DNA of 64,000 bases from a virus. The notes under the pieces are model-generated. The model was not told where the DNA came from. It made no database searches and worked only from the letters and a program-made list of their open reading frames with translations. The stretch lies in IMG/VR virus record IMGVR_UViG_3300032322_001315, positions 1 to 64,000 of that record; one strand, 5' to 3'. The translations under genes and the position numbers were made by a program. Positions within the stretch are counted from its first letter, which is position 1; the number at the start of each line of letters is the position of its first letter. Below are positions 32,085-60,328 of the stretch, piece by piece.

Positions 32085-32791
32085 AGCAAATCTGTTCTCC
32101 AATAATTATTCCAAAATAAATTGATACAACCTCTTCCCTGTAACGCATAGAATGGAGTAGTATGTAGAAGTCCTACAGAACCATAATAATAGTTCCTTTT
32201 GAATCTTTGTCTATTGATAACCGATGCAAAGTGAGACATACCAGTATCGCCACCTACATAATGACTGCAATCTGTTATGTGATTTACATTATCAATGAAG
32301 TCTGTAGAATACTTAAAGTTCTTTAATACTAAACCTTCCTTCTCTGCATTAATGCAAATATATTTTTCATAATCATCATATGCAGGGTCACTATAAACTT
32401 CTATAAAGTCATTGGTCATTTCGACAGACCAATTTCTATATGTATTATATGGTCCATCAAACAAAGGAAAGATACAAATTTTATTTTTTGTTTCTTTTTT
32501 GAAATCTAGATTCAGAACATCACCAGTAATCGACCTAAAATCCCACAGATTTATATTTGAAATACTTAAACTTTTCTCTCCTGGTTCTTTTGAGATGTAA
32601 CCCGTATTCTCTGTTAACCAGTCTCTAAATTTGATACAGTATTCTGATGATTGAATTGACTCATTAGGAATATAAAATTTATATTCTTGATTATCTTTCT
32701 TTCTAAGAAACTCGCAAAAATTCAGAGATGCAATAATATCTCCGTTTCTCATCGGACCACCAAAGTGGTGGGGGTCAATATTAATAATCAT
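32081..32791 (-). CDS. Putative GT-B (GT9/heptosyltransferase-like) protein
   Basis: N-terminal GD, R.W, VGGDTG.SHFAS resemble GT9 motifs. Confidence 0.5.
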   Translation of the reverse strand: MIINIDPHHFGGPMRNGDIIASLNFCEFLRKKDNQEYKFYIPNESIQSSEYCIKFRDWLTENTGYISKEPGEKSLSISNINLWDFRSITGDVLNLDFKKETKNKICIFPLFDGPYNTYRNWSVEMTNDFIEVYSDPAYDDYEKYICINAEKEGLVLKNFKYSTDFIDNVNHITDCSHYVGGDTGMSHFASVINRQRFKRNYYYGSVGLLHTTPFYALQGRGCINLFWNNYWRTDLL

Positions 32792-33506
32792 TGATATTTA
32801 CTAACTTTGAATTTCTGTTTTGATAATAGTGAAGTTTAAAATCATGTTCAACTCCCCAACCTTGCCAATTACGCATATCTTCATCCCAAAGAACAACCGT
32901 TTCTTTGTACATCAAATCCGCAACTATTCCTATACCCGTAAATGTTGTTATGAATGGGGCGTGACTGTACCTAATCAAATTACAATTATACATCAAATCC
33001 TTAGTATAGTCAAGATAGTGACTCTTACTTTCATCAATTACACCAGAGTCTTTTATCAAGTTAGACTTTCTTCTGGTATCAACATCGGGGGCATCATTAG
33101 GTGACCATCTATCTCCGATTATTGTTTTATCTGCAACGTCTAAATTTAAATTTTCTATCTTCAAAACAAAATCATTATCTATTTCATAATTTATACGATA
33201 GTTATCTACAATAAAATTATGAAATCTTTTTACGCAGATTGGAGAATTATTATCTCCTTTTTCATTTCCCACATCATCTACAATAATATATCTATCTGAT
33301 GGTTGGGTTATTTCATGCATGAATTTAACTTCTTCAAACATATCTTGATACTGTAATAGTTCTTTTATTCCTTTAAATCTTTCAAGTCTATTACATATAC
33401 CAAATAATAATTTTTCTCCGGTTTTTTTATAAAGTCCTGATAATGTAGGAAGACAATGCATGAAGTCTCCTAGGTTATGAATTCTTGGTGAATATAATGT
33501 AATCAT
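32781..33506 (-). CDS. Putative GT-B-like glycosyltransferase
   Basis: LGDFMH.LP.L N-terminus and FI.T.TG...VAD resemble GT9. Confidence 0.45.
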   Translation of the reverse strand: MITLYSPRIHNLGDFMHCLPTLSGLYKKTGEKLLFGICNRLERFKGIKELLQYQDMFEEVKFMHEITQPSDRYIIVDDVGNEKGDNNSPICVKRFHNFIVDNYRINYEIDNDFVLKIENLNLDVADKTIIGDRWSPNDAPDVDTRRKSNLIKDSGVIDESKSHYLDYTKDLMYNCNLIRYSHAPFITTFTGIGIVADLMYKETVVLWDEDMRNWQGWGVEHDFKLHYYQNRNSKLVNINDY

Positions 33507-34324
33507 ATTTGTTCGTTATATTTTCTAAAAATTAAAAACCAATCATTAGGATTAGCAGGATGCAATTGAAAATCTCCAGGACTTGTCAGTAATGCCATCA
33601 GCAACAATGTTTGGTCATCATCAATAAGTTTGTTTTTAATCAATAGATTAAGATTGTTAATTACCAAATCTTTAAGAGTATTCCATTTTTCTTTCCCAGC
33701 AACAATATGACAACCTTGAATATAAACGTCACCAGTATAGATTATATCATTGATAGGTCTATTGTCAATTGCACGTTGGCAGAAGAAATGAATTTTTTCT
33801 CTGTCAAAATCGTATGTCCATTTGTTCGATGATGGTATAGTATTGTCATCACGAACATAACCAAAATCAATCCATGCAACTTGGTCATTTGTAACCAGAC
33901 CTTTGTCTATTGCATCTGTAACATAAACTGATTTGGAGATATTGACGAGAACATAATCATCATGCCAATATTCAATCAATTGGGGATTAATAACCTTACT
34001 ATAATACTCAGGTGAATCCATAATGTTTCTGATTTTTTGTTTCGTCTCAACAAAATTTTCAGGAAGATACGATTCCCACACAACTACTTTTGTTTTATCT
34101 TCAAGTCCGTTTTGCTTTCTAATTTCAATAACTCTGTCTTTGAAGTTCGGAGTAGTATAGATTATCATTTCATTTTGAATCTTTGCGAGTTTGCTAAAGA
34201 AATCAAAATAAGTATCAACACTTCTATGTTGATAATGTGGCAATACTCTTCCGTGTTTTGTTTGTGGTAGATTACCTCTACCTATATCAAAAAATGCTGT
34301 TACAATTGTAATATCATTCTGCAT
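33503..34324 (-). CDS. HtrL/YibB (WlaTC) family glycosyltransferase-like
   Basis: ITIVTAFFDIGR, AWIDFGY, IDDDQ. Confidence 0.8.
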   Translation of the reverse strand: MQNDITIVTAFFDIGRGNLPQTKHGRVLPHYQHRSVDTYFDFFSKLAKIQNEMIIYTTPNFKDRVIEIRKQNGLEDKTKVVVWESYLPENFVETKQKIRNIMDSPEYYSKVINPQLIEYWHDDYVLVNISKSVYVTDAIDKGLVTNDQVAWIDFGYVRDDNTIPSSNKWTYDFDREKIHFFCQRAIDNRPINDIIYTGDVYIQGCHIVAGKEKWNTLKDLVINNLNLLIKNKLIDDDQTLLLMALLTSPGDFQLHPANPNDWFLIFRKYNEQI

Positions 34325-35165
34325 ACTTTGCCTCAATCTTTGCTTTCCATTCTGGAACTCTATTGTATTGGTGAACTAGAACATACTTTTCACCTTTGCT
34401 ATTATATACATATTCACCATCAAACCTTGGTTCTGGACTTAGTAGATTTGGTCTGAATCTATCAATCTTATTTGGGTCTACTGTTGTTCCACATTGACAT
34501 GCCCAATTGGTGTCGTGGTCATTAAACTTTGTAATAGAGTTGTATGGCTCTAATGCGAGAGTTAAATTGACTCCTGCTTGGTCTGGAGTAGGATTATTAA
34601 TGTGTTGTATCTTCAAAAATACATCTAAAGAATAATCAACAAATGTCTTATGTTCTCCTGCCATGGATCCTGCATTATAAATCGGTCTGTCTTTCATGAA
34701 ATCGTGAATCACAGGACCATAACAATGCATCATATTTTCATTTCCCCAATCTTCATCTTTATATTTCAGACCTTCGCACCCATAATTTAACTTCTTATTT
34801 CCGAGATTCTTTTCTAACCATTCAGAAGGATTACTTTGAAAAATAACGTCAACGTCAGTAGAAATGACATACCGAATATCTTTAAGTCCTTTTAAAAACA
34901 ACCAGTAAAAATAGTGTCTTGTTGCAGGAACTTGAAAAGTAAAATTTTCAGCAAAGAGATATCCGTTATCTTCTTTATTTCTTTGAGTTGAGGTTTGAAA
35001 AATTTCAAAACCTTCGTTCTTTAATTTTTGAATGGTATCATCAAGGACATTATGTACAATAATTCCTTTTCTTCCTTTGTATCCGCATCTGCGTAGGGAA
35101 TTGACCCAAGGTTTGATTTTATCAAAAGTATATTCTGAAATTGCACTAATAACTAAATCTTGCAT
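34314..35165 (-). CDS. Putative GT-A glycosyltransferase
   Basis: TDVDVIFQ.NP, N.G...G, DQ, VHQYNR. Confidence 0.6.
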   Translation of the reverse strand: MQDLVISAISEYTFDKIKPWVNSLRRCGYKGRKGIIVHNVLDDTIQKLKNEGFEIFQTSTQRNKEDNGYLFAENFTFQVPATRHYFYWLFLKGLKDIRYVISTDVDVIFQSNPSEWLEKNLGNKKLNYGCEGLKYKDEDWGNENMMHCYGPVIHDFMKDRPIYNAGSMAGEHKTFVDYSLDVFLKIQHINNPTPDQAGVNLTLALEPYNSITKFNDHDTNWACQCGTTVDPNKIDRFRPNLLSPEPRFDGEYVYNSKGEKYVLVHQYNRVPEWKAKIEAKYAE

Positions 35166-35929
35166 AATTTTTTTCCTAATTCAATAAAAGTTTTTTCATA
35201 ATCTGAGAAGGTATAATCTAAATTCAATACTTTTAATAATTTAGTATTATCCATAACAAATTGTCTATCGACAGGACCGGATGATTTAAACTTACCACCA
35301 TATCTGTATCCTGAGATTAAATTTCTTGCTACCTTTCCTATTTCTAAACCATAATTTGAACTTAAATTATATATTCCGGTGATTCTGTGTTTTCCTGCTT
35401 CTTCTATTAGGTATGCAGAATCTTTTACAAAAATAAAATCTCTTTTTGTTTTTTCTGAAATGGTATATACAATCTTACCTTCATTCACCAATTGAGTCAT
35501 ACAGTACCCAACGAAAGAGTTTCTTCCATATTCAAATCCAAATATATTAGAACCTCTAAGTACCACCACGTTATTGAAATTTTCTAATAGTTTAGTTTCA
35601 CTCTTTAATTTATTTTCACTATAATAATCAAAAGGATTTAGTTGTGAGTTCTCATCGTATGTTTTAAGTTCATTATTGTTACCATAAACTTTACTTGTAG
35701 ACAACATCACATAGTGACATTTACTTTCGTATGCTTTTTTTCCTATCTCAAAATCTATGTCGATGGTTTCATCATATTTAACTATTTTAAATTCTGGATG
35801 CAATGCACAGTTTATTATGATATCGTATTGTGAAAAATTTATGTCTTTAGATTCATTATAAGAAACTTTATCGCAATTTATGTTTTGTCCTATAAAACTA
35901 TTTTTTCCTACTAATAAGATTTTCTCCAC
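35153..35929 (-). CDS. NAD-dependent epimerase/reductase
   Basis: GKNSFIG, STSKVYG, Y...K, RDFI. Confidence 0.75.
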   Translation of the reverse strand: MEKILLVGKNSFIGQNINCDKVSYNESKDINFSQYDIIINCALHPEFKIVKYDETIDIDFEIGKKAYESKCHYVMLSTSKVYGNNNELKTYDENSQLNPFDYYSENKLKSETKLLENFNNVVVLRGSNIFGFEYGRNSFVGYCMTQLVNEGKIVYTISEKTKRDFIFVKDSAYLIEEAGKHRITGIYNLSSNYGLEIGKVARNLISGYRYGGKFKSSGPVDRQFVMDNTKLLKVLNLDYTFSDYEKTFIELGKKLCKI

Positions 35930-36624
35930 GGAAATTCTCCATTATATCTTTCATTCATTATTCTATTTCCATTTTCAAAAAATTCTTTATTGACTGATCC
36001 TGGATTACCATCAACTCTGTAATTTACAGAATATTTACCTGTACAATCAAATTTTGGAAAGTGTTGAGACAATACCGAAGGAAATGCTCTATCTGCACCC
36101 CAGCCCATGTGCCAAATATGAGAGGTTTTAATTGCAACTTCTTTTTTGATACAGTATGTACTAGTATCAATTAAATTGACTCCATGATATGTTTTCCATT
36201 TTCCTAACGATTCGCAATCATCATTGCATAGATAGTTGTCATCTTTATCTATAATCTTCCTCAAAGAATAGCACCAATCTAATTCATTTTTTTCAATTAA
36301 ATCGACACAAGTTTGAACATGGTCCGTATCCAATATATTATCATGGTCTAAAAATAGTATATAATCTTCATTTACCAAATGAGCAAACGATGCATAAACT
36401 CTGTGACCATAGAAACCATTTTCTCCAACATTCACGGGCAAATAACAAACCTTTAGATTTTTGTTTCCCATATAGTCACTAACAATCACTCTAACATTAC
36501 CTTCAAAGTTTGGACCATCACAAACCAAATAGCAAGTAGTAGGATATGTTTGAGATAATACACTTTTAATTGCTTTTCTTACTTCTTTAATTCCAGTTGT
36601 GGCAATGATAACAACAGCAGACAT
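35911..36624 (-). CDS. Glycosyltransferase family 2
   Basis: SVLSQTY, CDG, FLDHDN, DR. Confidence 0.8.
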   Translation of the reverse strand: MSAVVIIATTGIKEVRKAIKSVLSQTYPTTCYLVCDGPNFEGNVRVIVSDYMGNKNLKVCYLPVNVGENGFYGHRVYASFAHLVNEDYILFLDHDNILDTDHVQTCVDLIEKNELDWCYSLRKIIDKDDNYLCNDDCESLGKWKTYHGVNLIDTSTYCIKKEVAIKTSHIWHMGWGADRAFPSVLSQHFPKFDCTGKYSVNYRVDGNPGSVNKEFFENGNRIMNERYNGEFPWRKSY

Positions 36625-36633
36625 AATAATATC

Positions 36634-37902
36634 CTATTCAAAAAAATTACTAAGTGTTCCTCTATCAAAATATTGTTCGAAACTTGACACATTACCAAAA
36701 CACCAGATAGGTTCGATATAAATCTTGGTCATATATTCGTCAAGTTCATCACCTATATCTTTTGGTCTTTGAACTATACGCATACCAATTTGACCAACAA
36801 ACTTATCCTTAAACTTTTCAATTAAATCATCTGATGCATGATATCGTTTGTTCTTTATCTTTGGGTCCATAATGTTTATCATCATACATCCATTTGATGA
36901 TAATTTACTCATAATCTTTTCTGCAACTGGAAGATAAAATTTATCTCTCCACTTCTCATATGTATCATACCTTGACCAAGACTGGTCTTCTTCTTTACCC
37001 GAACCTGTTGCGTATTTTTCTGTAGCAAAGTATGGAGGAGATGTAAATGCACAATCGACTTCAGGAATCAAATTCCAATCCATATCTTCTGCTGGTTTTC
37101 TCTGTATGATGACTGTCTTTCTTGGAGATTCAAATTTGAACAAATCCGTCTTTTCTGTGATGACAAATTTCTCACCACCTTCTAGCAGTTTACTATATTC
37201 AATACATTGCTTCTTATATCGTTCAAATGTCTCTGGATTAGGATCGCAACCATAATACTCTGTTGTATTTGGAGTTGCAAAGAATGCTGCAAGTCTGTCG
37301 CCCCAACCACACGAGGTATCTAGAATTACATTTGCATTTGTCAATAGATATAAACATTTTGCAACATGAGGCTTAAACTGAGTTGCGACATAAGCACCTA
37401 GACGAAATGCTGCATTGTAACTACTAATACTCAATTCATTATTGTTCATTCTCCAAAGAGGAGATAGTAGTTGTTCTAAATCTATTCCTTTTGTCCATCT
37501 GTCATAAGGAGAATTAAAAGACCAACCACCACAACGATATCTCAAATCACGATGAAAATAATTTGAGCAATCGTTATATGAATGTCCGTTTTGAATTACA
37601 CCCATACCATATTTCTCATATGAATATGTGTAATCATCAAACTTTTCAATGACTTTGTGTTTAACTTCTTCGTGTTTAAAAAAGTAAGATTTCAAATCAC
37701 TCTTTAAAAGAGATAGAAAATTATCCTGCATTTCTTTATGCGTTGTAACTTGAAAAGGAAATGCAGGAGTTTTCTCTATAATATATTCTGATAATTCTTT
37801 ACGAATTTGTTCTTTAGAATATTTTTGATTTAACTCTTTCCATTGCTCAACATTCAATAGTGGAGGACCACCATTTTTGGTATATTGTGCAAAATTTATC
37901 AT
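36634..37902 (-). CDS. Amino DNA methyltransferase-like protein
   Basis: QFKPHVAK, DTSCGWGDRL, GCDPN, FTSPPYFATEKY. Confidence 0.75.
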   Translation of the reverse strand: MINFAQYTKNGGPPLLNVEQWKELNQKYSKEQIRKELSEYIIEKTPAFPFQVTTHKEMQDNFLSLLKSDLKSYFFKHEEVKHKVIEKFDDYTYSYEKYGMGVIQNGHSYNDCSNYFHRDLRYRCGGWSFNSPYDRWTKGIDLEQLLSPLWRMNNNELSISSYNAAFRLGAYVATQFKPHVAKCLYLLTNANVILDTSCGWGDRLAAFFATPNTTEYYGCDPNPETFERYKKQCIEYSKLLEGGEKFVITEKTDLFKFESPRKTVIIQRKPAEDMDWNLIPEVDCAFTSPPYFATEKYATGSGKEEDQSWSRYDTYEKWRDKFYLPVAEKIMSKLSSNGCMMINIMDPKIKNKRYHASDDLIEKFKDKFVGQIGMRIVQRPKDIGDELDEYMTKIYIEPIWCFGNVSSFEQYFDRGTLSNFFE

Positions 37903-37909
37903 GTCAAAT

Positions 37910-38641
37910 TTATTTCTTCATTCCCATAAATGGATTTTGTTTATTAGTTTTTGGTGCAACGGAGTAGTTACTTTTAGGCATCTTTTTGATTTTTATTTCT
38001 GCTTGCACTTCATAAAATTCTGAACGAGTAGCAACACGGACTTTAAAATCTCCTGAACCTTTCAGTAAAGGTATTGATGCATCTAAACCTAGAGGATTTT
38101 TATTTGAGATTCTGTAGAAATCGTCTCCTGCTTGCATATAATAAGCAGGTTCGGTCTTTCCTTCTGTATAATGTTCAGTAACCAACTTACCCAAATCACG
38201 ATTTTCATCATTAGCAATATATCGATTAATACCAGGTTGGTCAAAATATGCTTTCATGATTTGAAGTGACACAGCACCAGGTTCTTTTAGTCCACTTTTC
38301 GTTGTCGGTATCTTTATATCTTTTTTGGGTATACCTGAAAATTTAGAAATATTATCAATAAACTTTTTTGCCTCCGGTGATTTGTTTAAAATATCAACAG
38401 CAGCTTCAGCAGTAGGTGTTTTATATGTTGTTTTCCATTGACCGTTTTCATAATAAACTCTTGGGTTTGAAAGATTGTCAGTATGTGACATTTTAACTTC
38501 TACCCAAGTTTTTATATTTTTATATTCAATTTTAACATCAGAAAATCCTGTACCTACAGAAGGTCTAGATGCGTTTATGCCAGGCAGTTTGTTTATTTCT
38601 TTTGCTACATCTTGTTCGAATTTATCTGATGCTGCACTCAT
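37910..38641 (-). CDS. PD-(D/E)xK nuclease-like protein
   Basis: FE...SDV...VEVK catalytic-type pattern. Confidence 0.5.
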   Translation of the reverse strand: MSAASDKFEQDVAKEINKLPGINASRPSVGTGFSDVKIEYKNIKTWVEVKMSHTDNLSNPRVYYENGQWKTTYKTPTAEAAVDILNKSPEAKKFIDNISKFSGIPKKDIKIPTTKSGLKEPGAVSLQIMKAYFDQPGINRYIANDENRDLGKLVTEHYTEGKTEPAYYMQAGDDFYRISNKNPLGLDASIPLLKGSGDFKVRVATRSEFYEVQAEIKIKKMPKSNYSVAPKTNKQNPFMGMKK

Positions 38642-52363: not shown

Positions 52364-53026
52364 TTAGACTTTTTCAGTTGATACCCAATATTCTGATGTG
52401 CCTGACCCATTCTTAAAATGAGAAATGCCTTTAGCAGAAATTTCTACTTCATATGAATCGGACATAATCTTGTTTAGATTTTCTGTCTTGAACACATATC
52501 TAAATCCATTTTCTGTTTCACCGATGTCAATCGAATTAACGTGTGCTGAATCATTGGATGCATCAAAAGAAGACAGACGCAACTTACCATCGACACCTTC
52601 GACTGCAATGTTTGGTGACTGAAGAACTGATGCTGTACGAACAATCCATTCATAATCTTCTTGAGTCAACTTAAATTGAACATCAACAGAAGGTAGAACA
52701 ATTTGCTTGTCTGGTGGAGTATAAAGCATCGACTTGTCAGTAACACGATATTTAATCTTGCTACGACCATTCATAAATTTGACAATAACATGACTATCAT
52801 CAAAATCAAGTTCAGGTGCATCCTTCTGTAGAGAAAGAACTGATAGAAAATTGTTCAAATCGTAGATACCAAATTCTTTTGGAAAGTCTTCTTCAACTGT
52901 AACTTGAGCAAGTACAGTCTTTGACTGTGACACGGTAGAAAGAACATTTCCTTGCTTAAAATACAATCCAGAATTAATCGCAGAAAAATTCTTTAGAATT
53001 GATAGTGTATTAGTAGATAACTTCAT
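52364..53026 (-). CDS. 45: Sliding clamp (gp45)
   Basis: MKLS.NTL.ILKNF..IN, FGIYDL..FL. Confidence 0.92.
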   Translation of the reverse strand: MKLSTNTLSILKNFSAINSGLYFKQGNVLSTVSQSKTVLAQVTVEEDFPKEFGIYDLNNFLSVLSLQKDAPELDFDDSHVIVKFMNGRSKIKYRVTDKSMLYTPPDKQIVLPSVDVQFKLTQEDYEWIVRTASVLQSPNIAVEGVDGKLRLSSFDASNDSAHVNSIDIGETENGFRYVFKTENLNKIMSDSYEVEISAKGISHFKNGSGTSEYWVSTEKV

Positions 53027-53378
53027 GATTCTCCCATTTTGTAATAAGTCTTTCAATATACCACTTTGCTTTCTTTAGGTCTTCTAAACCACCTTTTTGT
53101 TTCCATCTCCACATATACTTGATAGCATTAGCAGTACATACGGCATCAATACCTGTTAGATTAGATGTTGCCGATTCTAGTGCTTCAATACATTCTACAC
53201 TACCTTGGGTATAATGTGAAGGGTGATTTACTTTTTCTTCCAGTTCTATCTTTATATCTTTCCATGATTCTAAATCACCGAGAATCAATAAATCTTCTCC
53301 ACAGTATCCTTCGACACCATCCTCATTCATATGGATGGTGAATACGGGTGCACTCAACTTATCTTTCTTTGCCATCAC
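53010..53378 (-). CDS. DUF3310 (T7 gp1.7-like nucleotide kinase domain)
   Basis: VNHPSHY, ECI, NAIKY.WR...KGG.EDL.KA.WY. Confidence 0.85.
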   Translation of the reverse strand: MMAKKDKLSAPVFTIHMNEDGVEGYCGEDLLILGDLESWKDIKIELEEKVNHPSHYTQGSVECIEALESATSNLTGIDAVCTANAIKYMWRWKQKGGLEDLKKAKWYIERLITKWENHEVIY

Positions 53379-54172
53379 ATTTCTCCAACAAAGTTTGCAA
53401 CAGCAGGCATATCACCTTGGAAATGATATGTTCCAATATGTGCGGTCTTTACCCACGGGCAGAGATAAATCTTACCACCAATGTTTCTCCACCATTGACA
53501 GAACATATAATCTTCTGATAGATAACGTTCAGAATTTTTGTCAATTACAGTATCAAAATAAGCATGAATATAACGAGTACCATCAAAGTGTGCTTGACCT
53601 ACGTGGTCTGGCTTATAACGGAATTCTGGATATGCTGCTTCCCACTTGGGAAAGACTTCACGCTTCACCATCATGAATCCTGTGCCAATTTCAAGAACTT
53701 CAAGAGGTTCTGTAACAGAAAACTGTGCGGTACCTTTAACAGGATTAAAGACGAAATCTCCTGCTACTTTTTCGAGTAGATGGGCTTCAAGTTCTGGATT
53801 CTTCGTGATTGCTTTCTTTATGTTTGTCCATTTGAGTGCTTTCTTTGGATATGGACCACCAATAACATCCTTATCGAGAGCAAGCATCGCAATAACATCA
53901 CGAGGATCAAAACTAATGTCTGAATCTAAAAACAATAGATGAGTGCAGTCAGAACGACTTAGAAACTCATCTACTAGATAATTTCTTGCTCTAGTAATAA
54001 GAGACTCATTAAATAGGAATGAAAACTTTGTTTCAATTCCATATTGGAAACATAGACCTTGAAGGTCTAGACAAGACTTCATATAAAGTCCATGATTCAT
54101 TCCTCCATACATCGGAGTAGCAATGAATAACTTTTTCTTTCTTAGTTCTTCAACTTTAATTTGAATTTCCAT
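53375..54172 (-). CDS. GT-A fold glycosyltransferase-like protein
   Basis: ATPMYGG, ESLITRARN, FLDSDI (DxD), GTGFM, LSEDY.FC, HIG. Confidence 0.7.
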   Translation of the reverse strand: MEIQIKVEELRKKKLFIATPMYGGMNHGLYMKSCLDLQGLCFQYGIETKFSFLFNESLITRARNYLVDEFLSRSDCTHLLFLDSDISFDPRDVIAMLALDKDVIGGPYPKKALKWTNIKKAITKNPELEAHLLEKVAGDFVFNPVKGTAQFSVTEPLEVLEIGTGFMMVKREVFPKWEAAYPEFRYKPDHVGQAHFDGTRYIHAYFDTVIDKNSERYLSEDYMFCQWWRNIGGKIYLCPWVKTAHIGTYHFQGDMPAVANFVGEM

Positions 54173-54205
54173 GGTATCCTCATGTTAAATTTAACTACAA
54201 TCCAC

Positions 54206-54234
54206 ATCATACACTTATGTAGTATATGAGTCAA
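54206..54234 (-). promoter_or_regulatory. sigma70 promoter
   Basis: TTGACT-17 bp-TATGAT. Confidence 0.65.
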
Positions 54235-54252
54235 GACTTTTAGTGGTGAATA

Positions 54253-55842
54253 TTACGGTTTGTAAAAGATGAACACCGGTTCATACTTTAACCACATATC
54301 TGCACCTTTTTCATTTTTGACTTTGCAAAAATTCTTTGCTTTAGGTAGACCAGTTTCACTATCTACTCTATTACCTCCAGGCATTTGTGCTAGAGACATT
54401 TTCAGTTTGCCTTTGTATTCCATACCTAATGATTCAAGAATCTTTCTGCTATCTTCTTCAAGAGGAAGCATGTCGCCTCCGAACACAGCATCAGCAATAT
54501 TCCAAAGAAGATAACGGTCATGGCGTAACCATTCAACAGCAGTTTCAAGGGTTGGGCGTAAAAATCCTTCACGCCATTCTTCATACTGTCCAAACTTTTT
54601 ATATGATTGAGTAGGGTCTTCCGAATATGCTTCTTTTGCGAAGTATGGTGGGGAAGTAAATACGAGGTCGAGTTTGCCTCTAAACTTCTGAAACTCTTCA
54701 TTGTTTCGGATTACCTCCGAACCAAGTTGGAAAATCTTTGTTTCTGTATGTGAATATTCGTCTGCCCACAGACCCCCTTTGTCTACCGTCTGTCTATAAA
54801 AGTCAGCGATTTCATCGTATTTTGTGCGTCCATCAGAAGTGTTGTGGTCAGTATTAGGATCAGTCCCAATATAAAAGATATGACGGTCATCACGAACAGA
54901 CATGGCACCAAGAAGACGACCACTCCACCCCGAAGAAGGATCGTAAATATGAATAGTGGGTTGGTTTTTAATGTGTTCAGTAAATCGTTCATAGAGGTAT
55001 TTAGCAGTTAGTGGAGGAAAATTTACAGCATATTGACAAAACGAAACTCTGAATGCCTTTAGACCAACAGGAAAAAGTTTTTGTCCAAACTTAAAAGGAC
55101 GAATAGCATAATATTCTGACTTATTATAGTCAACATTTGTACGACTCTTTTGTGATACGTTAAGTGCTTCAATGTCACTTTTATGAATCGTTAAATATTT
55201 TGCATTTCTTAGTTCTTCACTATATCCGGTATATTCAGCATCTAGTTCTTTTGGTTGCAACCAATAATCATATTCTCCACGTTGTCTAAACTTTTCTTCA
55301 AACTCTTTTACCCACGTTGCTCCATCTGATACAACGGGAAGTTGGTTGTAGTATGTTTTGTCGTTTGCTTTGGCAACGTGTGAGTAGTGATAAAAAGAAT
55401 CACGCTTAAAATGACGACTAGCGTAAGTGATGAATGTTTCAAGTAATTCTTCCTTTGCAAAATAATCATAGATAGACTTACCATCATCTTTCTTTGTGTA
55501 ATTGATGCGAGTCTTCATCATAGTAGGAAACCATTGATTGACTGCATTACCAATTACACTAGTATTACGAATAACATCTTTTTCTCCTGTGAGTTCATCT
55601 ACACACTCAAACTCATGAACAGGAAAACTTTCCATTTGATTAAATTGGTCAATAATGCCTTGCTTATCAAAACCTACACGAGGAGGAAGATTCTTGTTGT
55701 CCCAAAGGTCAACAATAGTCTTCCTCAAATCAATTACCCATTGACGAAATTCGTCTTTCGTCATCCATAGAATCTCTTCAAATGTCTTATTGACAGAAGA
55801 TTCTAGTAACTCACGATTTCTTTCATAATACCATTGTGTCAT
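54253..55842 (-). CDS. Large amino DNA methyltransferase-like protein
   Basis: NFPPLTAKYLYE, DPSSGWSGRL, GTDPN, FTSPPYFAKEAY. Confidence 0.75.
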   Translation of the reverse strand: MTQWYYERNRELLESSVNKTFEEILWMTKDEFRQWVIDLRKTIVDLWDNKNLPPRVGFDKQGIIDQFNQMESFPVHEFECVDELTGEKDVIRNTSVIGNAVNQWFPTMMKTRINYTKKDDGKSIYDYFAKEELLETFITYASRHFKRDSFYHYSHVAKANDKTYYNQLPVVSDGATWVKEFEEKFRQRGEYDYWLQPKELDAEYTGYSEELRNAKYLTIHKSDIEALNVSQKSRTNVDYNKSEYYAIRPFKFGQKLFPVGLKAFRVSFCQYAVNFPPLTAKYLYERFTEHIKNQPTIHIYDPSSGWSGRLLGAMSVRDDRHIFYIGTDPNTDHNTSDGRTKYDEIADFYRQTVDKGGLWADEYSHTETKIFQLGSEVIRNNEEFQKFRGKLDLVFTSPPYFAKEAYSEDPTQSYKKFGQYEEWREGFLRPTLETAVEWLRHDRYLLWNIADAVFGGDMLPLEEDSRKILESLGMEYKGKLKMSLAQMPGGNRVDSETGLPKAKNFCKVKNEKGADMWLKYEPVFIFYKP

Positions 55843-56981
55843 GATAAAATATACTCTCTCAAGTTTTCATTTGTAATAACATCAATAACGAGATGAATTC
55901 TTTTTTCATCACCATTGTTTACTACCATGTGAGGTTTGCGTGTGTCTAAAAACCAACACTCACCAACTTTCATGTTTACTTCTTTTCTGTTTCCGTTTGG
56001 TTCCCATACCACAAATTCAACTTTGTCGTTGGTAACAATAGGAAAGTGCAGGCGAGCAAGTTTACCGATAGAACCGCCTGAATCAGGGTCGACCTGGTCG
56101 GTGTGTCTACTGAGTTCACCACCACCAGGAGCAAGAGACATAAAGCGGATCCGATGTATGCCTTGTAATTCAAACCGTCTGATGAGTTCATCGACTTCTG
56201 GAAAATCTTTTCGAAGATGCGTATCCTGCAATTCAAAATGTTCATCTTTGTGCTCCTCTTTCCATTTATCATTCATCTCAATTGGTTTTTCAATCCTCAT
56301 TATATCTGGAGTATAACCTCTCAATGAGATTGCTGACCAAGACTTACCTTTGTTGTAATTGCTGTAATGATTTTGAAATTCAATGTTTAGTGATTCCAAT
56401 TTAGTTTTAATAGAGTTTATAAGATTAGAATCTACATCACAGATTTTTGTGATTGCAACATTATGTGTTGCATCAATATTCGTGTGTTCTCGGGGAAACA
56501 ACGCATTCTTTTCATCTTTAAAGTATACACCAAAAATTTCACCAAAAGAGGTAATCTTGCTACCTACTTTGATAAAGTGTTTTTCGATGATACTTTTTGT
56601 TGCAACATCTTCTTCCCAAATAAACAACCATACTGCATTCTTTTGATTGATGTGGATGTTCTCACAAAAATTTTCAATGAACTTATCTGTTCCTCTGAGA
56701 TTTGTGATAACAATATCGCCTTTTTCTTTTGTGCCTATTACCACATCTTGATACATTGTAATAGGTTTTCTGACTTTTGTCAAGCGATATGTGTAAGAAC
56801 CTTCGTTCTCAAAAACAATCTTGCCTTCGTGTAAGTCTTGTGCTATGTTGTTTTTCTTGTATGCAGTAAACGGAGATAGACTGTACTTATTATAATTTTC
56901 GTAAAGTTTTTCTATCGATTTCAGATAATCAAGTTCGTACCCGTGTTGCCATGGCTTTTGTTGCTTTTCTAAATCTTGCAT
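55839..56981 (-). CDS. 2OG-Fe(II) dioxygenase (Asp/Asn beta-hydroxylase-like) with extra N-terminal domain
   Basis: HTD...RLHFPI.TN...KPH..VN...RIHLVID. Confidence 0.75.
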   Translation of the reverse strand: MQDLEKQQKPWQHGYELDYLKSIEKLYENYNKYSLSPFTAYKKNNIAQDLHEGKIVFENEGSYTYRLTKVRKPITMYQDVVIGTKEKGDIVITNLRGTDKFIENFCENIHINQKNAVWLFIWEEDVATKSIIEKHFIKVGSKITSFGEIFGVYFKDEKNALFPREHTNIDATHNVAITKICDVDSNLINSIKTKLESLNIEFQNHYSNYNKGKSWSAISLRGYTPDIMRIEKPIEMNDKWKEEHKDEHFELQDTHLRKDFPEVDELIRRFELQGIHRIRFMSLAPGGGELSRHTDQVDPDSGGSIGKLARLHFPIVTNDKVEFVVWEPNGNRKEVNMKVGECWFLDTRKPHMVVNNGDEKRIHLVIDVITNENLREYILS

Positions 56982-57537
56982 AGAGTTTGTTCCTTTTCTT
57001 CAATCCAGATTGTAGTGCTAGAGGTTTTGCTTTTTTCGTAAACACAATACCATTCATATGGTCGTATTCATGAAGAAATACTCTAGCAGACAGTCCAGAA
57101 AATGTTACGGTCTTCTTCTCGCCGGTGAAATCTTGATATTCAACGACAATACTTTCTGGTCTGGATATATTTAGGAACAATTGTGGAAAAGACAGACACC
57201 CTTCTGACATATGTACCATTGTCATAGATTCATCAATAATCTTGGGATTGAAGAATGCAACATACTCTCCTTCTGGGTCTCCCATGACGAACACTCGATA
57301 TTTAAATCCGCATTGATTTGCAGATAGACCCAATCCTCTATGTTGCTTACAAGTTTCTACTAGAGCAGATGCAAATTCATTTGGATTATAAGGAGGATTT
57401 TCAAAATTAAAATCTTCCAACTTTTGAGTAAGCACAGGATCATTTTCTTGAACTAACTTAAAAGTTGTAATCTTTTGAGTTTCAATTCTTCCTTTTACCG
57501 CATCAGCTGTATCAAAAACAAAAAAATCATTACTCAT
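56929..57537 (-). CDS. def: Peptide deformylase
   Basis: GLGLSANQ, EGCLS, HEYDH..G. Confidence 0.93.
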   Translation of the reverse strand: MSNDFFVFDTADAVKGRIETQKITTFKLVQENDPVLTQKLEDFNFENPPYNPNEFASALVETCKQHRGLGLSANQCGFKYRVFVMGDPEGEYVAFFNPKIIDESMTMVHMSEGCLSFPQLFLNISRPESIVVEYQDFTGEKKTVTFSGLSARVFLHEYDHMNGIVFTKKAKPLALQSGLKKRNKLYARFRKATKAMATRVRT

Positions 57538-59249
57538 TATGCTATCCTACTAAAGTTGTTTTTCTTTTCAAATCGAACGACCGAGCGGAACTTATCGAAC
57601 AACTGGTCTCCTTTATGACTGATAACAAATACGTTTGTATCGTTTCCAATATCATACATCAACTTCAAAAATTCTTCTGTGCCTCCAACATCAAGACTGC
57701 TATCAAACACTTCATCAAGAACCAAAAGATTTGTGTTTGTGCTATTCTTTAATTTTGCAATTTGTCTCCAAGTAAACAGAATAGCAAGGTCAATACGCAT
57801 CTTCTCGCCTTCAGAGAAGTTGTTATAACTGAAATCGTCTCTATGTCTAGATTTGATTGTTTCTTCAAAACTCTCATTCAAGTTAAAGTTAATAAATGAG
57901 TCCATTGAGGTCAAATATTTATTAATCAACTTATTAATAATCGGCAAATATTGCTTGATTATTTTAGTCTTGATACCTGTATCTTTTAATAGATTGGACG
58001 CAAAATCGCAATACTGTTTCTCTGTTGAAAGTTCTTTTTGTTTTTCTTTAAGTGTTTCTAACTGTTGATTCAACTCTTTCAATTGTTCATCTTCATTAAC
58101 TGAACTGATTTTCTTCAGAGATAGAATTCTGATATCTTCATTCAGTTTTGTAATATACTTATTGATTGCAAGAATAGAAGAATTGTGCTTTACGATTTCA
58201 GAATTGTGTGAGTTTATGTCCTGAGTTATTTTTACGATTTCTTTTATGCGGGCATCGACTTTCTGAATTTCACTTTGAATTTGTTCAAGTCCAGTCTTTT
58301 GTTCATTTGCCTTATCTTGTCTTTCTTTAATTTGACTTGCTTTAAATTCTTCTTCAATATTTTGTCTGCAAGTAGGACAGTTATCATTTTCATGATAGAA
58401 CTCAATGTCCTTCTCAATCTTCGAAATATTGTTTTCAATCTTGGATTCTAATTGAATCAGTTTTTTATTCTTCAATTCAGTCGATGTTTTATCATCTATG
58501 CTTTTCATCATAGCATCAATGTGCTTCTGAATCAATTCAATTTCAGATTGAAGTTTTGTTACATGCTCTTCATTTTCTTTGAGTTCTTTTTGTTTTTCTA
58601 CAATTTCTTCTTCTTTGTTCTTTTCACCTTCTTCAAGATGCTGAAGTTTCATCTTGATTTTTGCTTCAGTCAAGTCTAGGTCATATTTTAGTTGTGCTGA
58701 AGAATCTTTTAGTTCTACCATCTTTTGCTTCAGCAGAGTATTCATTGAAGAGAAGATTTGAATATCGAGAAGGTCTTCAATGATTGCTCTGCGGTCAGCA
58801 GCAGAAAGTTGCATGAACGGAGTAAATGACGCAGACCCCAGAATAACAATCTGGGTGAACGACTTATAGTTCAACTTCAAAATACTCTTCTCTAGAACCT
58901 CTTGATAGTCTCTAGATGCTGCATCTTGATTGAGAAGTTTGCCGTCAATATGAATTTCAAAAACGCTAGGTTTGATACCACGAACGACTTTGTAATTCTT
59001 GTTGCCTATCGTGAATTCAATCTCAACAACGCAATCTCTTTCATTGATGGAGTTCAGCAGTTGTGGTTTATTGATTTTACGATAAGGCTTACCAAAAAGA
59101 CCAAACGTTAATGCATCAAGAATGGTCGACTTACCCGAACCATTATTGCCGATGATTAATGTGTTTGGTGAACGAGTTAAATCTATTTCAGTAAAAACAT
59201 TGCCGGTACTGAGCAGATTCTTCCATCTTACTTTTTCAAAAATAATCAT
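57537..59249 (-). CDS. 46: SbcC/Rad50-like recombination ATPase (gp46)
   Basis: GNNGSGKS, CPTC hook, FSEGEK, LDE.FDSSLD, SH. Confidence 0.95.
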   Translation of the reverse strand: MIIFEKVRWKNLLSTGNVFTEIDLTRSPNTLIIGNNGSGKSTILDALTFGLFGKPYRKINKPQLLNSINERDCVVEIEFTIGNKNYKVVRGIKPSVFEIHIDGKLLNQDAASRDYQEVLEKSILKLNYKSFTQIVILGSASFTPFMQLSAADRRAIIEDLLDIQIFSSMNTLLKQKMVELKDSSAQLKYDLDLTEAKIKMKLQHLEEGEKNKEEEIVEKQKELKENEEHVTKLQSEIELIQKHIDAMMKSIDDKTSTELKNKKLIQLESKIENNISKIEKDIEFYHENDNCPTCRQNIEEEFKASQIKERQDKANEQKTGLEQIQSEIQKVDARIKEIVKITQDINSHNSEIVKHNSSILAINKYITKLNEDIRILSLKKISSVNEDEQLKELNQQLETLKEKQKELSTEKQYCDFASNLLKDTGIKTKIIKQYLPIINKLINKYLTSMDSFINFNLNESFEETIKSRHRDDFSYNNFSEGEKMRIDLAILFTWRQIAKLKNSTNTNLLVLDEVFDSSLDVGGTEEFLKLMYDIGNDTNVFVISHKGDQLFDKFRSVVRFEKKNNFSRIA

Positions 59250-60328
59250 GCTTGTTCTAAGTTAAGTGCTTCAATATAAAGTTCTTTGAGAACGGTCTTG
59301 AGTTTGTTTCCGTCGATGTGTTCATGTTCAATCGAATCAACATATGTGTTTAGAATAGTCAAAGTGTCTTCTGCCTGTTCTACTATATCATCATCTACGC
59401 CTTCTGTCAAGGCAGAAAAGTCTTCAACAATGCTAACGTCTGACGGGCCTGCCTGGTAGATATTGTTGATAAACACATCAAACAAATAAGGATTTGTCTT
59501 GTTAACAACCACAACCTTTATGTACTTGTTTGCATAATCATAGAATTCTTGAGTTGCGATTGTAGTAATATCATTCTTTTTATCATCGTACACAAGACGA
59601 ACAAACATTTCGTAAGGATTAATCACAAACTCAAGTTCTCTAGTTTTCAAATCAAGAATATGAAATCCTCTTTGGTCGCCATAGTCTTGCCATGTCAATG
59701 GATATGGATTGCCAAGATAATAGATTCCATTTTGATTTGACTTGTGATGATAGTGACCAGAGAACGTCATGTCGAATTTCTGAAAAATATTCTGAGGTAG
59801 TCCTTCTTCAGAATGAGCACCTCGATACATCGCAAAACCTTCAATCTCAAAGTGACCGCAGCAGATAGTTGCCTTAGTGTGCTTCATTATATCAAGACAT
59901 TGACTGTAGTTATCTGCACACATCCAAGGAATCATGCAAACGTCATCTGATTCATTTTCATAGTTCAAATGTATAACTTGAGGAGAATCAATAACATTGA
60001 CATTATCGTATTCTCTTAGAAGCAAATCGGCAGAGTTTACATCATTTGTGTTTTTATAATATGTGTCATGATTACCTGCAAGCATATGAACTTGAATATT
60101 CTCTTGTGCAAGAACATCAAAAAACATTTGCTTTGCACGTTGCAGCGAATAAAAATTAATATACTTTCTGCGGTCAAATGTATCACCAAGAATCAATAAC
60201 GTGGTGATACCTTCTTCCTTCAACTTTGGAAAAAACACATTACGATAAAACTTTTCATAATAGTCTAGAAAATTTACAGAATCATTTCTAGCACCAAAAT
60301 GTTGGTCGGTAATTAATGCAACTTTCAC
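59246..60328 (-). CDS. 47: Mre11/SbcD-like nuclease (gp47)
   Basis: TDQHFG, GDTFD, GNHD, SGHYH. Confidence 0.95.
   Translation of the reverse strand: MKVALITDQHFGARNDSVNFLDYYEKFYRNVFFPKLKEEGITTLLILGDTFDRRKYINFYSLQRAKQMFFDVLAQENIQVHMLAGNHDTYYKNTNDVNSADLLLREYDNVNVIDSPQVIHLNYENESDDVCMIPWMCADNYSQCLDIMKHTKATICCGHFEIEGFAMYRGAHSEEGLPQNIFQKFDMTFSGHYHHKSNQNGIYYLGNPYPLTWQDYGDQRGFHILDLKTRELEFVINPYEMFVRLVYDDKKNDITTIATQEFYDYANKYIKVVVVNKTNPYLFDVFINNIYQAGPSDVSIVEDFSALTEGVDDDIVEQAEDTLTILNTYVDSIEHEHIDGNKLKTVLKELYIEALNLEQA

Follow-up and report, generated by a model that had tools for sequence, protein, structure and literature searches.

The locus treated here is a pair of adjoining genes in the initial 64 kb of an IMG/VR record that is 90.5 kb long (IMGVR_UViG_3300032322_001315, from an uncultured virus and judged 51% complete), and described systems that resemble it come from phages and from antibiotic biosynthesis. 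In the thymidine hypermodification of phages M6, ViI and PaMx11, an appended amino acid is sculpted by pyridoxal 5'-phosphate (PLP)-dependent decarboxylases and by acetyltransferases (Lee et al., NAR 2021/22; PMC8989533). Other phage systems combine a C5-methyltransferase with a TET/JBP oxygenase and a glycosyltransferase (GT) (PMC8256090; bioRxiv 10.1101/2023.12.21.572611). In caprazamycin and muraymycin biosynthesis, a four-carbon 2-aminobutanoate derived from S-adenosylmethionine (SAM) is placed on the amine of a glycyluridine, where Cpz10 beta-hydroxylates it or the PLP enzyme Mur23 decarboxylates it (PMC9814697). In the window, as we call the whole 64,000-nucleotide stretch, one gene of the pair encodes MT, a methyltransferase-fold protein with an SPPY motif, and the other OXY, in which a GNAT-fold domain precedes a 2-oxoglutarate (2OG)-Fe(II) oxygenase domain. 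Comparison with relatives shows that MT and OXY are coupled in function within a widespread, modular and MT-centred unit of aquatic T4-like phages. That this module is coupled, centred on MT and probably directed to DNA, with the neighbouring GT-like and DUF3310 genes standing apart from it, is the reading that we favour on balance. The pair would then probably put a mark larger than a methyl group on phage DNA.

55839-56981, minus strand: OXY, 380 amino acids (aa), GNAT-fold N-domain and 2OG-Fe(II) oxygenase C-domain
56502-56939, minus strand: GNAT-like domain of OXY (residues 15-160), from VIA-align matches and conserved columns
55866-56474, minus strand: double-stranded beta-helix oxygenase domain of OXY (residues 170-372), from structure and profile matches
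54253-55842, minus strand: MT, 529 aa, the putative core enzyme of the module
55063-55842, minus strand: N-terminal region of MT (residues 1-260), family-specific and highly conserved
54256-55059, minus strand: catalytic domain of MT (residues 262-529), predicted class-I SAM-dependent amino-methyltransferase fold

We draw the functional link between MT and OXY from their conserved neighbourhood and from fusion proteins. The OXY stop and the MT start overlap in the tetranucleotide ATGA, as a first-pass annotation made from the sequence alone had reported, and through this overlap the two genes are translationally coupled. In about 30 IMG/VR loci selected by OXY, MT occupies the same slot between the peptide deformylase gene (def) and gp45, down to 44% OXY identity, and MT is conserved above OXY and gp46 (for example 80%, against 61% and 71%, respectively). 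More distant loci contain a gene for a PLP-dependent fold-type-II protein of about 250-295 aa (PALP) between OXY and MT. It is of two kinds, one matching PF00291/phrog_3650 (L027, L037) and one matching phrog_7093 (L018, L020, L021, L029, L031, L033). Pfam and PHROG scans assigned the domains of several fusion proteins that join these partners: MT and OXY are fused in P0394 (913 aa, in essence MT followed by OXY), P0399 and P0407, and MT and PALP, in either order, in P0283, P0323 and P0382. OXY is likewise fused to ParB_N and a beta-class N6_N4 methylase (P0401, P0413), and the 1188-aa P0400 unites ParB_N, methylase, PALP and OXY in one protein. In two further loci, L032 and L036, OXY has on one side a gene that is like MT but shorter and on the other a gene for a canonical DNA methylase of 216-222 aa. 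The ratio of nonsynonymous to synonymous substitution rates against close relatives is low and similar to that of gp46 (0.06 for MT, 0.08-0.10 for OXY, 0.07 for gp46), which argues that both genes are real and constrained.

We took a census of the 56 MT-selected IMG/VR loci that show the whole slot from gp46 to MT. The slot contents were distributed as follows.

MT alone: 24 of 56 loci
OXY, PALP and MT: 15 of 56 loci
PALP and MT: 10 of 56 loci
Short oxygenase (without the GNAT domain) and MT: 4 of 56 loci
Full-length OXY and MT, no PALP: 3 of 56 loci, the lineage of this window

Mapped onto the MT phylogeny (a quick maximum-likelihood tree), the accessory content must have changed at least 14 times. 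The comparison shows MT as the constant core, with OXY and the PLP enzyme as putative tailoring genes that are optional and have been repeatedly gained and lost. The OXY-only group that includes the window forms one clade (Shimodaira-Hasegawa-like approximate likelihood-ratio support 94) adjoining MT-only rows. MT occurs without OXY in the genomes G006 (95% complete) and G007 (100%, with terminal repeats). Two complete genomes that bear the trio (G001, G002) do carry PALP, which we did not find in the whole record of the window or in its relative G003 (86% complete). By this distribution, the lineage of the window is shown to retain OXY, with the PLP enzyme apparently lost or never present.

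Some loci display further arrangements. At L035:4069-5172, MT is followed by a gene resembling glutamine synthetase, with OXY 4 kb away past an RNase H gene. An HNH endonuclease gene (L029:9865-10467) is inserted between PALP and MT, and a LAGLIDADG intein-like insert sits within the methylase-OXY fusion protein P0410; these insertions mark the module as a target of mobile elements. At L037:848-5131, a full-length OXY (44% identity) and then PALP directly follow a gene for a portal-MuF fusion, in surroundings unlike those of T4-like phages. From this arrangement it follows that OXY and PALP can travel without a recognisable MT, at least within this 8.4-kb contig.

OXY residues 198-369 match the Pfam family Asp_Arg_Hydrox (PF05118; E 6.7e-14, 52.5 bits against a cut-off of 22.6), and about 190 additional residues lie N-terminal of the matched part, in agreement with the AspH-like oxygenase with an extra N-terminal domain that the first-pass annotation had described. 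More than 1000 full-length homologues share the two-domain architecture. Among the solved structures compared with an AlphaFold2 model of OXY (mean predicted local distance difference test score, pLDDT, 92.3), the best folds for the C-domain were Cpz10 (7v4p, Z 15.4), L-proline cis-4-hydroxylase (4p7x, Z 15.4) and human AspH (Z 15.1), and AlkB (Z 11.1) and NgTET1 (Z 10.2) ranked clearly below these amino-acid hydroxylases. The Foldseek match of the C-domain reached E 1e-11. A profile search of the PDB agreed with the structural ranking (4p7w, E 2.6e-8), and Cpz10 aligned over 158 residues (profile E 1e-5) at 19% identity. Pfam searches gave no AlkB or TET/JBP match for OXY at E <= 0.01. By its predicted fold, OXY hence belongs with the amino-acid beta-hydroxylases Cpz10, proline hydroxylase and AspH and not with AlkB or TET; a role as an AlkB- or TET-like base demethylase was considered, and the fold ranking speaks against it. 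H293-x-D295, H351 and R361 are invariant among 45 OXY homologues. The first three residues make up the iron-binding HxD...H triad, and R361 could be the basic residue that binds 2OG.

The N-domain of OXY (residues 15-160) adopts a GNAT fold in the model (VIA-align: 2pc1_A, Z 11.2, 139 residues aligned, root-mean-square deviation 3.3; 2fia_B, Z 10.3), and what had been a guess in the first-pass annotation is thereby confirmed. K85, D89, E124, K142, T144 and E148 are conserved in this domain, which gave no Pfam match, GNAT families included. In tblastn searches of cultured phages with OXY, only the C-domain of one mycobacteriophage protein was matched. As annotated, OXY begins within the 3' end of def, with 53 nt common to both genes (56929-56981), and L003-L005, the three nearest relatives, keep an overlap of about 50 nt. 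Since alignments with homologues set in only at about residue 6-9, translation may in truth start a few codons further in.

MT carries the motifs DPSSGWSGR (residues 301-309) and SPPY (residues 397-400), the latter matching the 529-aa SPPY methyltransferase of the first-pass annotation. SPPY is invariant in 38 MT homologues, and in the same set D301, P302, S303, G305, W306, G308 and R309 are invariant, with position 307 variable. Motif I thus precedes motif IV, an order that is not that of the beta class and that is found in Trm11/TrmN. The family is large, with more than 2000 homologues, 4715 profile matches and at least 578 IMG/VR stretches, and some of its members pass the cut-off of the Pfam family N6_N4_Mtase (PF01555). 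In the AlphaFold2 model (pLDDT 86.9), residues 262-529 form what is by prediction a class-I SAM-dependent amino-methyltransferase fold. The VIA rows for MT span residues 58-529 yet align only about 180 residues, and sequence and profile searches of the PDB gave nothing significant. Many columns are invariant in residues 1-260, for which Pfam, the PDB and the ESM Atlas provided no assignment; the ESM Atlas search with this N-domain retrieved unnamed viral clusters only, with scores of at most 0.81. In cultured phages, tblastn found MT homologues as pieces that cover only about residues 222-501 at 25-30% identity, and an NCBIfam scan gave no match for OXY, MT or the neighbouring GT-like and DUF3310 proteins.

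The most likely substrate of the pair is phage DNA, modified after replication at the exocyclic amino group of a base. Such groups are what enzymes with a (D/N/S)PPY motif bind. For DNA as the target argue the fusions with ParB_N and a methylase, the canonical DNA methylases that adjoin OXY in L032 and L036, and the position of the pair inside the replisome block. The best matches of MT among viral predicted structures point the same way, being annotated as N4-cytosine DNA methyltransferases (E 1e-12). So do the bacterial homologues of MT, which lie in restriction-modification (R-M) islands. Two cultured bacteria encode MT homologues of full length (34-35% identity). The one in Devosia epidermidihirudinis E84 (L150:5977-7527) adjoins an Eco57I-like R-M gene, with a DUF4130-UDG gene nearby, and the one in Limnohabitans sp. 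Jir61 (L151:5998-7530) adjoins the Mod and Res genes of a type III system and a nuclease-like gene of the T5orf172 type; these neighbourhoods may represent a defence or modification island. A coupled gene of 343-350 aa precedes both bacterial homologues and contains DUF3102 in Devosia. As a further argument for DNA, one type of PLP partner resembles a DNA-acting enzyme. A search with the PALP of L027 matched Ackermannviridae proteins around ViI gp226, and L027 PALP has 26% identity to gp226 itself (E 3e-26), the PLP lysines of the two coinciding in the alignment. ViI gp226 was experimentally shown to decarboxylate O-serinyl-thymidine within DNA (PMC8989533).

Both the substrate and the transferred group are read from gene content and folds, and the installation of a side chain is the more speculative part of what we propose. 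In a first step, MT would install an amino-acid-like side chain on a DNA base and not a mere methyl group. Such a side chain, installed by MT and hydroxylated by OXY, is favoured by the rank of OXY among the amino-acid beta-hydroxylases. A PLP enzyme of decarboxylase type requires a free alpha-amino acid on its substrate. In the loci with PALP and MT, no other enzyme able to install an amino acid is visible, and a search for a ThyA-family hydroxymethylase (PF00303) gave no match in G000 (the record of the window, 51% complete), G001, G002 or G003, with positive controls matched. The PLP partner, the lack of another installer and the lack of a ThyA hydroxymethylase together make MT itself the simplest installer. 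Since 3-amino-3-carboxypropyl (acp) is the sole amino-acid-like group in SAM, we regard it as the simplest candidate. In a second step, the C-domain of OXY would hydroxylate a carbon of this side chain, as Cpz10 does on the SAM-derived, N-linked 2-aminobutanoate. The GNAT-fold domain might acylate the free amine or hold the substrate, and where sister lineages have the PLP enzyme, this side chain would be what it decarboxylates. The window contains no PLP gene, and the model hence predicts a hydroxylated, possibly N-acylated and carboxyl-bearing side chain on a DNA base. The likely purpose would be to shield phage DNA from host nucleases. In this specific form, with acp transferred to the exocyclic amine of a DNA base and then hydroxylated by OXY and perhaps N-acylated, the proposal is tentative, and we rate it as rather doubtful.

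Two OXY-type fusion proteins carry other partner domains, namely a QueC-like PP-loop domain in P0397 and an LPG_synthase_C-like domain in P0395 (21.6 bits against a Pfam cut-off of 27.5). LPG_synthase_C is an aminoacyl-tRNA-dependent transferase fold. The two fusions are hints at possible other ways to build or activate the side chain.

Judged by its predicted enzymes, the MT-OXY module probably belongs with the post-replicative hypermodification of phage DNA by tailoring enzymes. With M6, ViI and PaMx11 it would share post-replicative DNA tailoring, and it shares combinatorial gene content and metagenomic fusion proteins, and with ViI also the homology of L027-type PALP of its relatives to gp226. 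It differs from M6 and ViI in that a ThyA-family hydroxymethylase was not found in G000-G003, in its amino-methyltransferase-fold core, whose target is probably an exocyclic amine and not 5-hydroxymethyldeoxyuridine (5-hmdU), in the presence of a 2OG oxygenase, and in that a PLP gene of the ViI gp226/M6 gp52 type is missing from the record of the window and from G003. The aGPT-Pplase of M6 and ViI was sought with ViI gp247 (aGPT-Pplase2) as the query, which gave nothing in G000-G003, although this is a weak test that had no positive control. Like the C5-methyltransferase, TET/JBP and GT systems, the module pairs a methyltransferase with an Fe(II)/2OG oxygenase. In contrast to them, the methyltransferase has an SPPY amino-methyltransferase fold and is not a C5 enzyme, the oxygenase is AspH/proline-hydroxylase-like (Z 15.4 versus 10.2 for NgTET1), and the GT-like neighbour is inherited independently.

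The nearest precedent for the chemistry is the Cpz10/Mur23 branch point. Cpz10 ties as the best structural match of the OXY C-domain, and the logic would be the same, in that a SAM-derived amino-acid side chain, linked to a nucleoside amine, meets either a 2OG hydroxylase or a PLP decarboxylase. Cpz10, however, belongs to a Streptomyces pathway for a small-molecule antibiotic and has no GNAT domain. Nucleic acids offer parallels as well. Mom of phage Mu is a GNAT-fold enzyme that makes N6-carbamoylmethyl-adenine, thus acting on an exocyclic amine in DNA, although it does so without a methyltransferase or oxygenase. On tRNA, the methyltransferase-fold enzyme TYW2 moves 3-amino-3-carboxypropyl from SAM, and TYW5, a JmjC 2OG enzyme, hydroxylates that side chain. 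The likeness of Mom and TYW2/TYW5 to MT and OXY is drawn from general descriptions. Our search of the literature, of limited coverage, found no description of this gene combination or of an acp-type modification of phage DNA. What we consider new is the combinatorial census with its tree, the PLP-less variant, the R-M-island homologues in cultured bacteria and the Cpz10/Mur23 precedent.

Several observations weigh against a DNA-directed, side-chain-building module. MT remains below the PF01555 cut-off (22.3 bits against 26.7, profile positions 2-61), and the commoner PALP type, phrog_7093, has no significant pairwise similarity to gp226. With no PLP gene in the window, the strongest tie to an enzyme proven to tailor DNA comes only by way of relatives. 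The R-M-island context could indicate defence instead of self-modification. To our knowledge, no member of the AspH/proline-hydroxylase clade acts on nucleic acid. In caprazamycin, the SAM-derived alkyl group is transferred by a PLP enzyme and not by a methyltransferase fold. The acetyl-CoA motif of GNAT enzymes (Q/R-x-x-G-x-G/A after strand 4) is not evident in OXY, where G97 alone is conserved in that loop, and the GNAT-like domain may therefore be non-catalytic. Two more such points, the many loci with a lone MT and the structural neighbours of its catalytic domain, lead to alternatives of their own.

The lone MT in 24 of the 56 loci would fit plain methylation too. MT could thus be an ordinary anti-restriction N6-adenine or N4-cytosine DNA methyltransferase, with OXY acting on that DNA in a different manner or on another substrate, and travelling along for co-expression only. 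The near-complete and complete genomes without OXY (G006, G007) agree with this, SPPY is typical of enzymes making N4-methylcytosine (m4C) or N6-methyladenine (m6A), and the viral structural matches are annotated as DNA methylases. We nevertheless regard this explanation as unlikely: the MT-OXY, MT-PALP and ParB-methylase-PALP-OXY fusions argue for a single pathway, a decarboxylase-like PLP partner would be senseless after simple methylation, and both the invariant 260-aa N-domain and a conservation above that of gp46 are unusual for a plain orphan methylase.

Alternatively, the pair might modify RNA, with the tRNA or rRNA of phage or host as targets. What chiefly speaks for RNA is that the nearest solved structures of the MT catalytic domain are the tRNA N2-methylguanosine enzymes Trm11, TrmN and Trm14 (Z 15.4-16.1), in which motif I likewise precedes the exocyclic-amine-binding (D/N/S)PP(Y/F). 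A methyltransferase fold is paired with a 2OG hydroxylase on a base side chain in wybutosine synthesis (TYW2/TYW5) and in ALKBH8. The identity to the Trm enzymes is, however, only 11-17%, and MT differs from them in an N-domain of its own, of 260 aa, and in genomic associations that point to DNA. A THUMP-type RNA-binding domain was looked for by Pfam scan and among the structure matches, and neither it nor another RNA-binding domain was recognised in MT. The fusions with ParB_N and beta-class DNA methylases, the R-M islands of the bacterial homologues and the PLP partner homologous to a DNA-acting enzyme also speak for DNA, so that we consider an RNA target improbable.

Even less probable is a target among proteins, for instance a translation factor or a protein of the ribosome, or a role in making a small molecule, for instance a modified amino acid or nucleoside metabolite. 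The nearest characterised relatives of OXY do act on free amino acids, peptides and an intermediate of a nucleoside antibiotic; the protein glutamine methyltransferase PrmC is structurally similar to MT (Z 13.7), def is the upstream neighbour, and some OXY fusions are to QueC-like or LPG_synthase_C-like domains. Against such targets stand the DNA-linked fusions and R-M neighbourhoods, the position within the replication and recombination block, and the occurrence of def also in relatives without the pair.

If the DNA-directed module is real, it would represent a hypermodification route that starts from a methyltransferase fold on normal bases and needs neither hydroxymethyl-pyrimidine nucleotides nor kinases. 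The hypermodification routes known to us start from 5-hmdU, 5-hydroxymethyldeoxycytidine (5-hmdC), 5-methylcytosine (5mC) or deazaguanine. Should the acp proposal also hold, this would be the first acp-type, purely SAM-derived DNA hypermodification, common in freshwater T4-like phages and present in bacterial R-M islands too. A novel base chemistry in such phages would matter for the arms races of phages and hosts in lakes, for the reliability of virome methods based on sequencing or restriction, and for the enzyme toolbox for site-specific DNA functionalisation. The cultured strains Devosia epidermidihirudinis E84 and Limnohabitans sp. Jir61, with their full-length homologues, are possible experimental models. 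For the window itself, the corrected grouping of genes is a pair, the PLP-less variant of the module, and not a pathway of four genes.

The four-gene grouping came from the first-pass annotation, which had placed four open reading frames between def/gp46 and gp45. All four are present there, within the replication and recombination block of a T4-like phage, the whole of which lies on the minus strand.

59246-60328, minus strand: gp47
57537-59249, minus strand: gp46
56929-57537, minus strand: peptide deformylase gene (def)
54206-54234, minus strand: sigma-70-like promoter pattern TTGACT-17-TATGAT, 10/12 match
53375-54172, minus strand: GT-like gene, 265 aa, phrog_1574, DSD motif
53010-53378, minus strand: DUF3310 gene, 122 aa, PF11753
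52364-53056, minus strand: gp45, with gp44 and gp62 beyond it, downstream
36634-37902, minus strand: paralogue of the MT catalytic domain, 422 aa, FTSPPYF motif

Within the four-gene stretch, the GT-like and DUF3310 genes overlap in GTGA, and the sole intergenic gap, of 80 nt, separates MT from the GT-like gene and contains the promoter-like site. The separate promoter proposed for this gene is hence present as a pattern; promoter-like sites are, however, not enriched in the region (19 found, 19.4 expected in shuffles), and position alone argues for the site at 54234-54206. The GT-like protein matches phrog_1574 (E 1.4e-63), a PHROG without assigned function. Of its description as a DxD GT-A protein, the motif holds up, as DSD at residues 83-85; the match to Anp1 stays under the threshold (22.4 bits, cut-off 28.8) and that to GlfT2 has an E value of 0.34 and covers the surroundings of the DxD only.

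The distribution of the GT-like gene does not follow that of the pair. Stenotrophomonas phage DLP_6 and Caulobacter phage Cr30 have it in the def-gp45 interval as well, and further carriers are Sinorhizobium phages of the phiM12 type, a pelagiphage and Synechococcus phages; tblastn searches found no MT or OXY match in these phages. It is present in 30 of the 48 MT-selected loci in which the whole slot from MT to gp45 is visible, independently of OXY (8/11 loci that have OXY, 10/21 that lack it; Fisher p = 0.27) and likewise of PALP. Occurrence in phages without MT and independence of OXY indicate that the GT-like gene is inherited separately. By its distribution it is an apparently independent conserved gene of this phage group that stands outside the MT module, and the phyletic pattern rules against it as a pathway member.

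The DUF3310 protein matches PF11753 (E 1.7e-17), and L003, the closest relative, was the sole other locus in which its gene was found in this slot. The protein aligns only with residues 120-185 of T7 gp1.7 (35% identity, E 2e-6), with no counterpart of the N-terminal 119 residues of gp1.7 in that alignment. As the match concerns the C-terminal part only, the label of a nucleotide kinase given in the first reading is weak and unproven, and the gene appears to be separate from the MT module and not a further step of it. The co-occurrence in relatives on which the earlier grouping depended therefore holds for OXY and MT, which neighbourhood and fusions link, and fails for the GT-like and DUF3310 genes.

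The earlier pathway, in which MT makes m6A or m4C, OXY hydroxylates the N-methyl group, the GT adds a sugar cap and DUF3310 supplies nucleotides, has the gene order, the ATGA coupling, the SPPY motif and the adjoining DxD-like GT in its favour, but we consider it highly improbable, because DLP_6 and Cr30 have the GT-like gene in this slot too, its presence does not depend on OXY, a promoter-like site of its own precedes it, DUF3310 is there in one relative only, OXY is closer to amino-acid hydroxylases (Z about 15) than to AlkB or TET (Z 10-11), and an N-methyl base would leave the PLP enzyme of the sister lineages without a substrate. Nor do we know of any N-methyl oxidase in the oxygenase clade of OXY. 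For OXY and MT by themselves, N-methylation with later oxidation of the methyl group is conceivable.

By gp46, the nearest cultured phages are Methylophilales phage Melnitz, Stenotrophomonas phage DLP_6 and cyanomyoviruses, at only about 50% identity, and a DNA-level search of the region against cultured phages gave no match. Metagenome runs that contain small parts of the region carry freshwater or lake labels.

The paralogue at 36634-37902 shares the FTSPPYF motif with MT, aligns with its catalytic domain at 26% identity (E 6e-15) and departs from it in the N-terminus. As a second member of the MT superfamily, it might methylate a glycan or connect glycan genes with DNA modification, and joint work with the MT-OXY pair is a candidate role only. 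The gene lies just downstream of a gp41-like helicase gene, is flanked by genes at 32781-36624 and 37910-38641, and stands directly upstream of a glycan block with GT2, NAD-dependent epimerase-like and HtrL/YibB genes.

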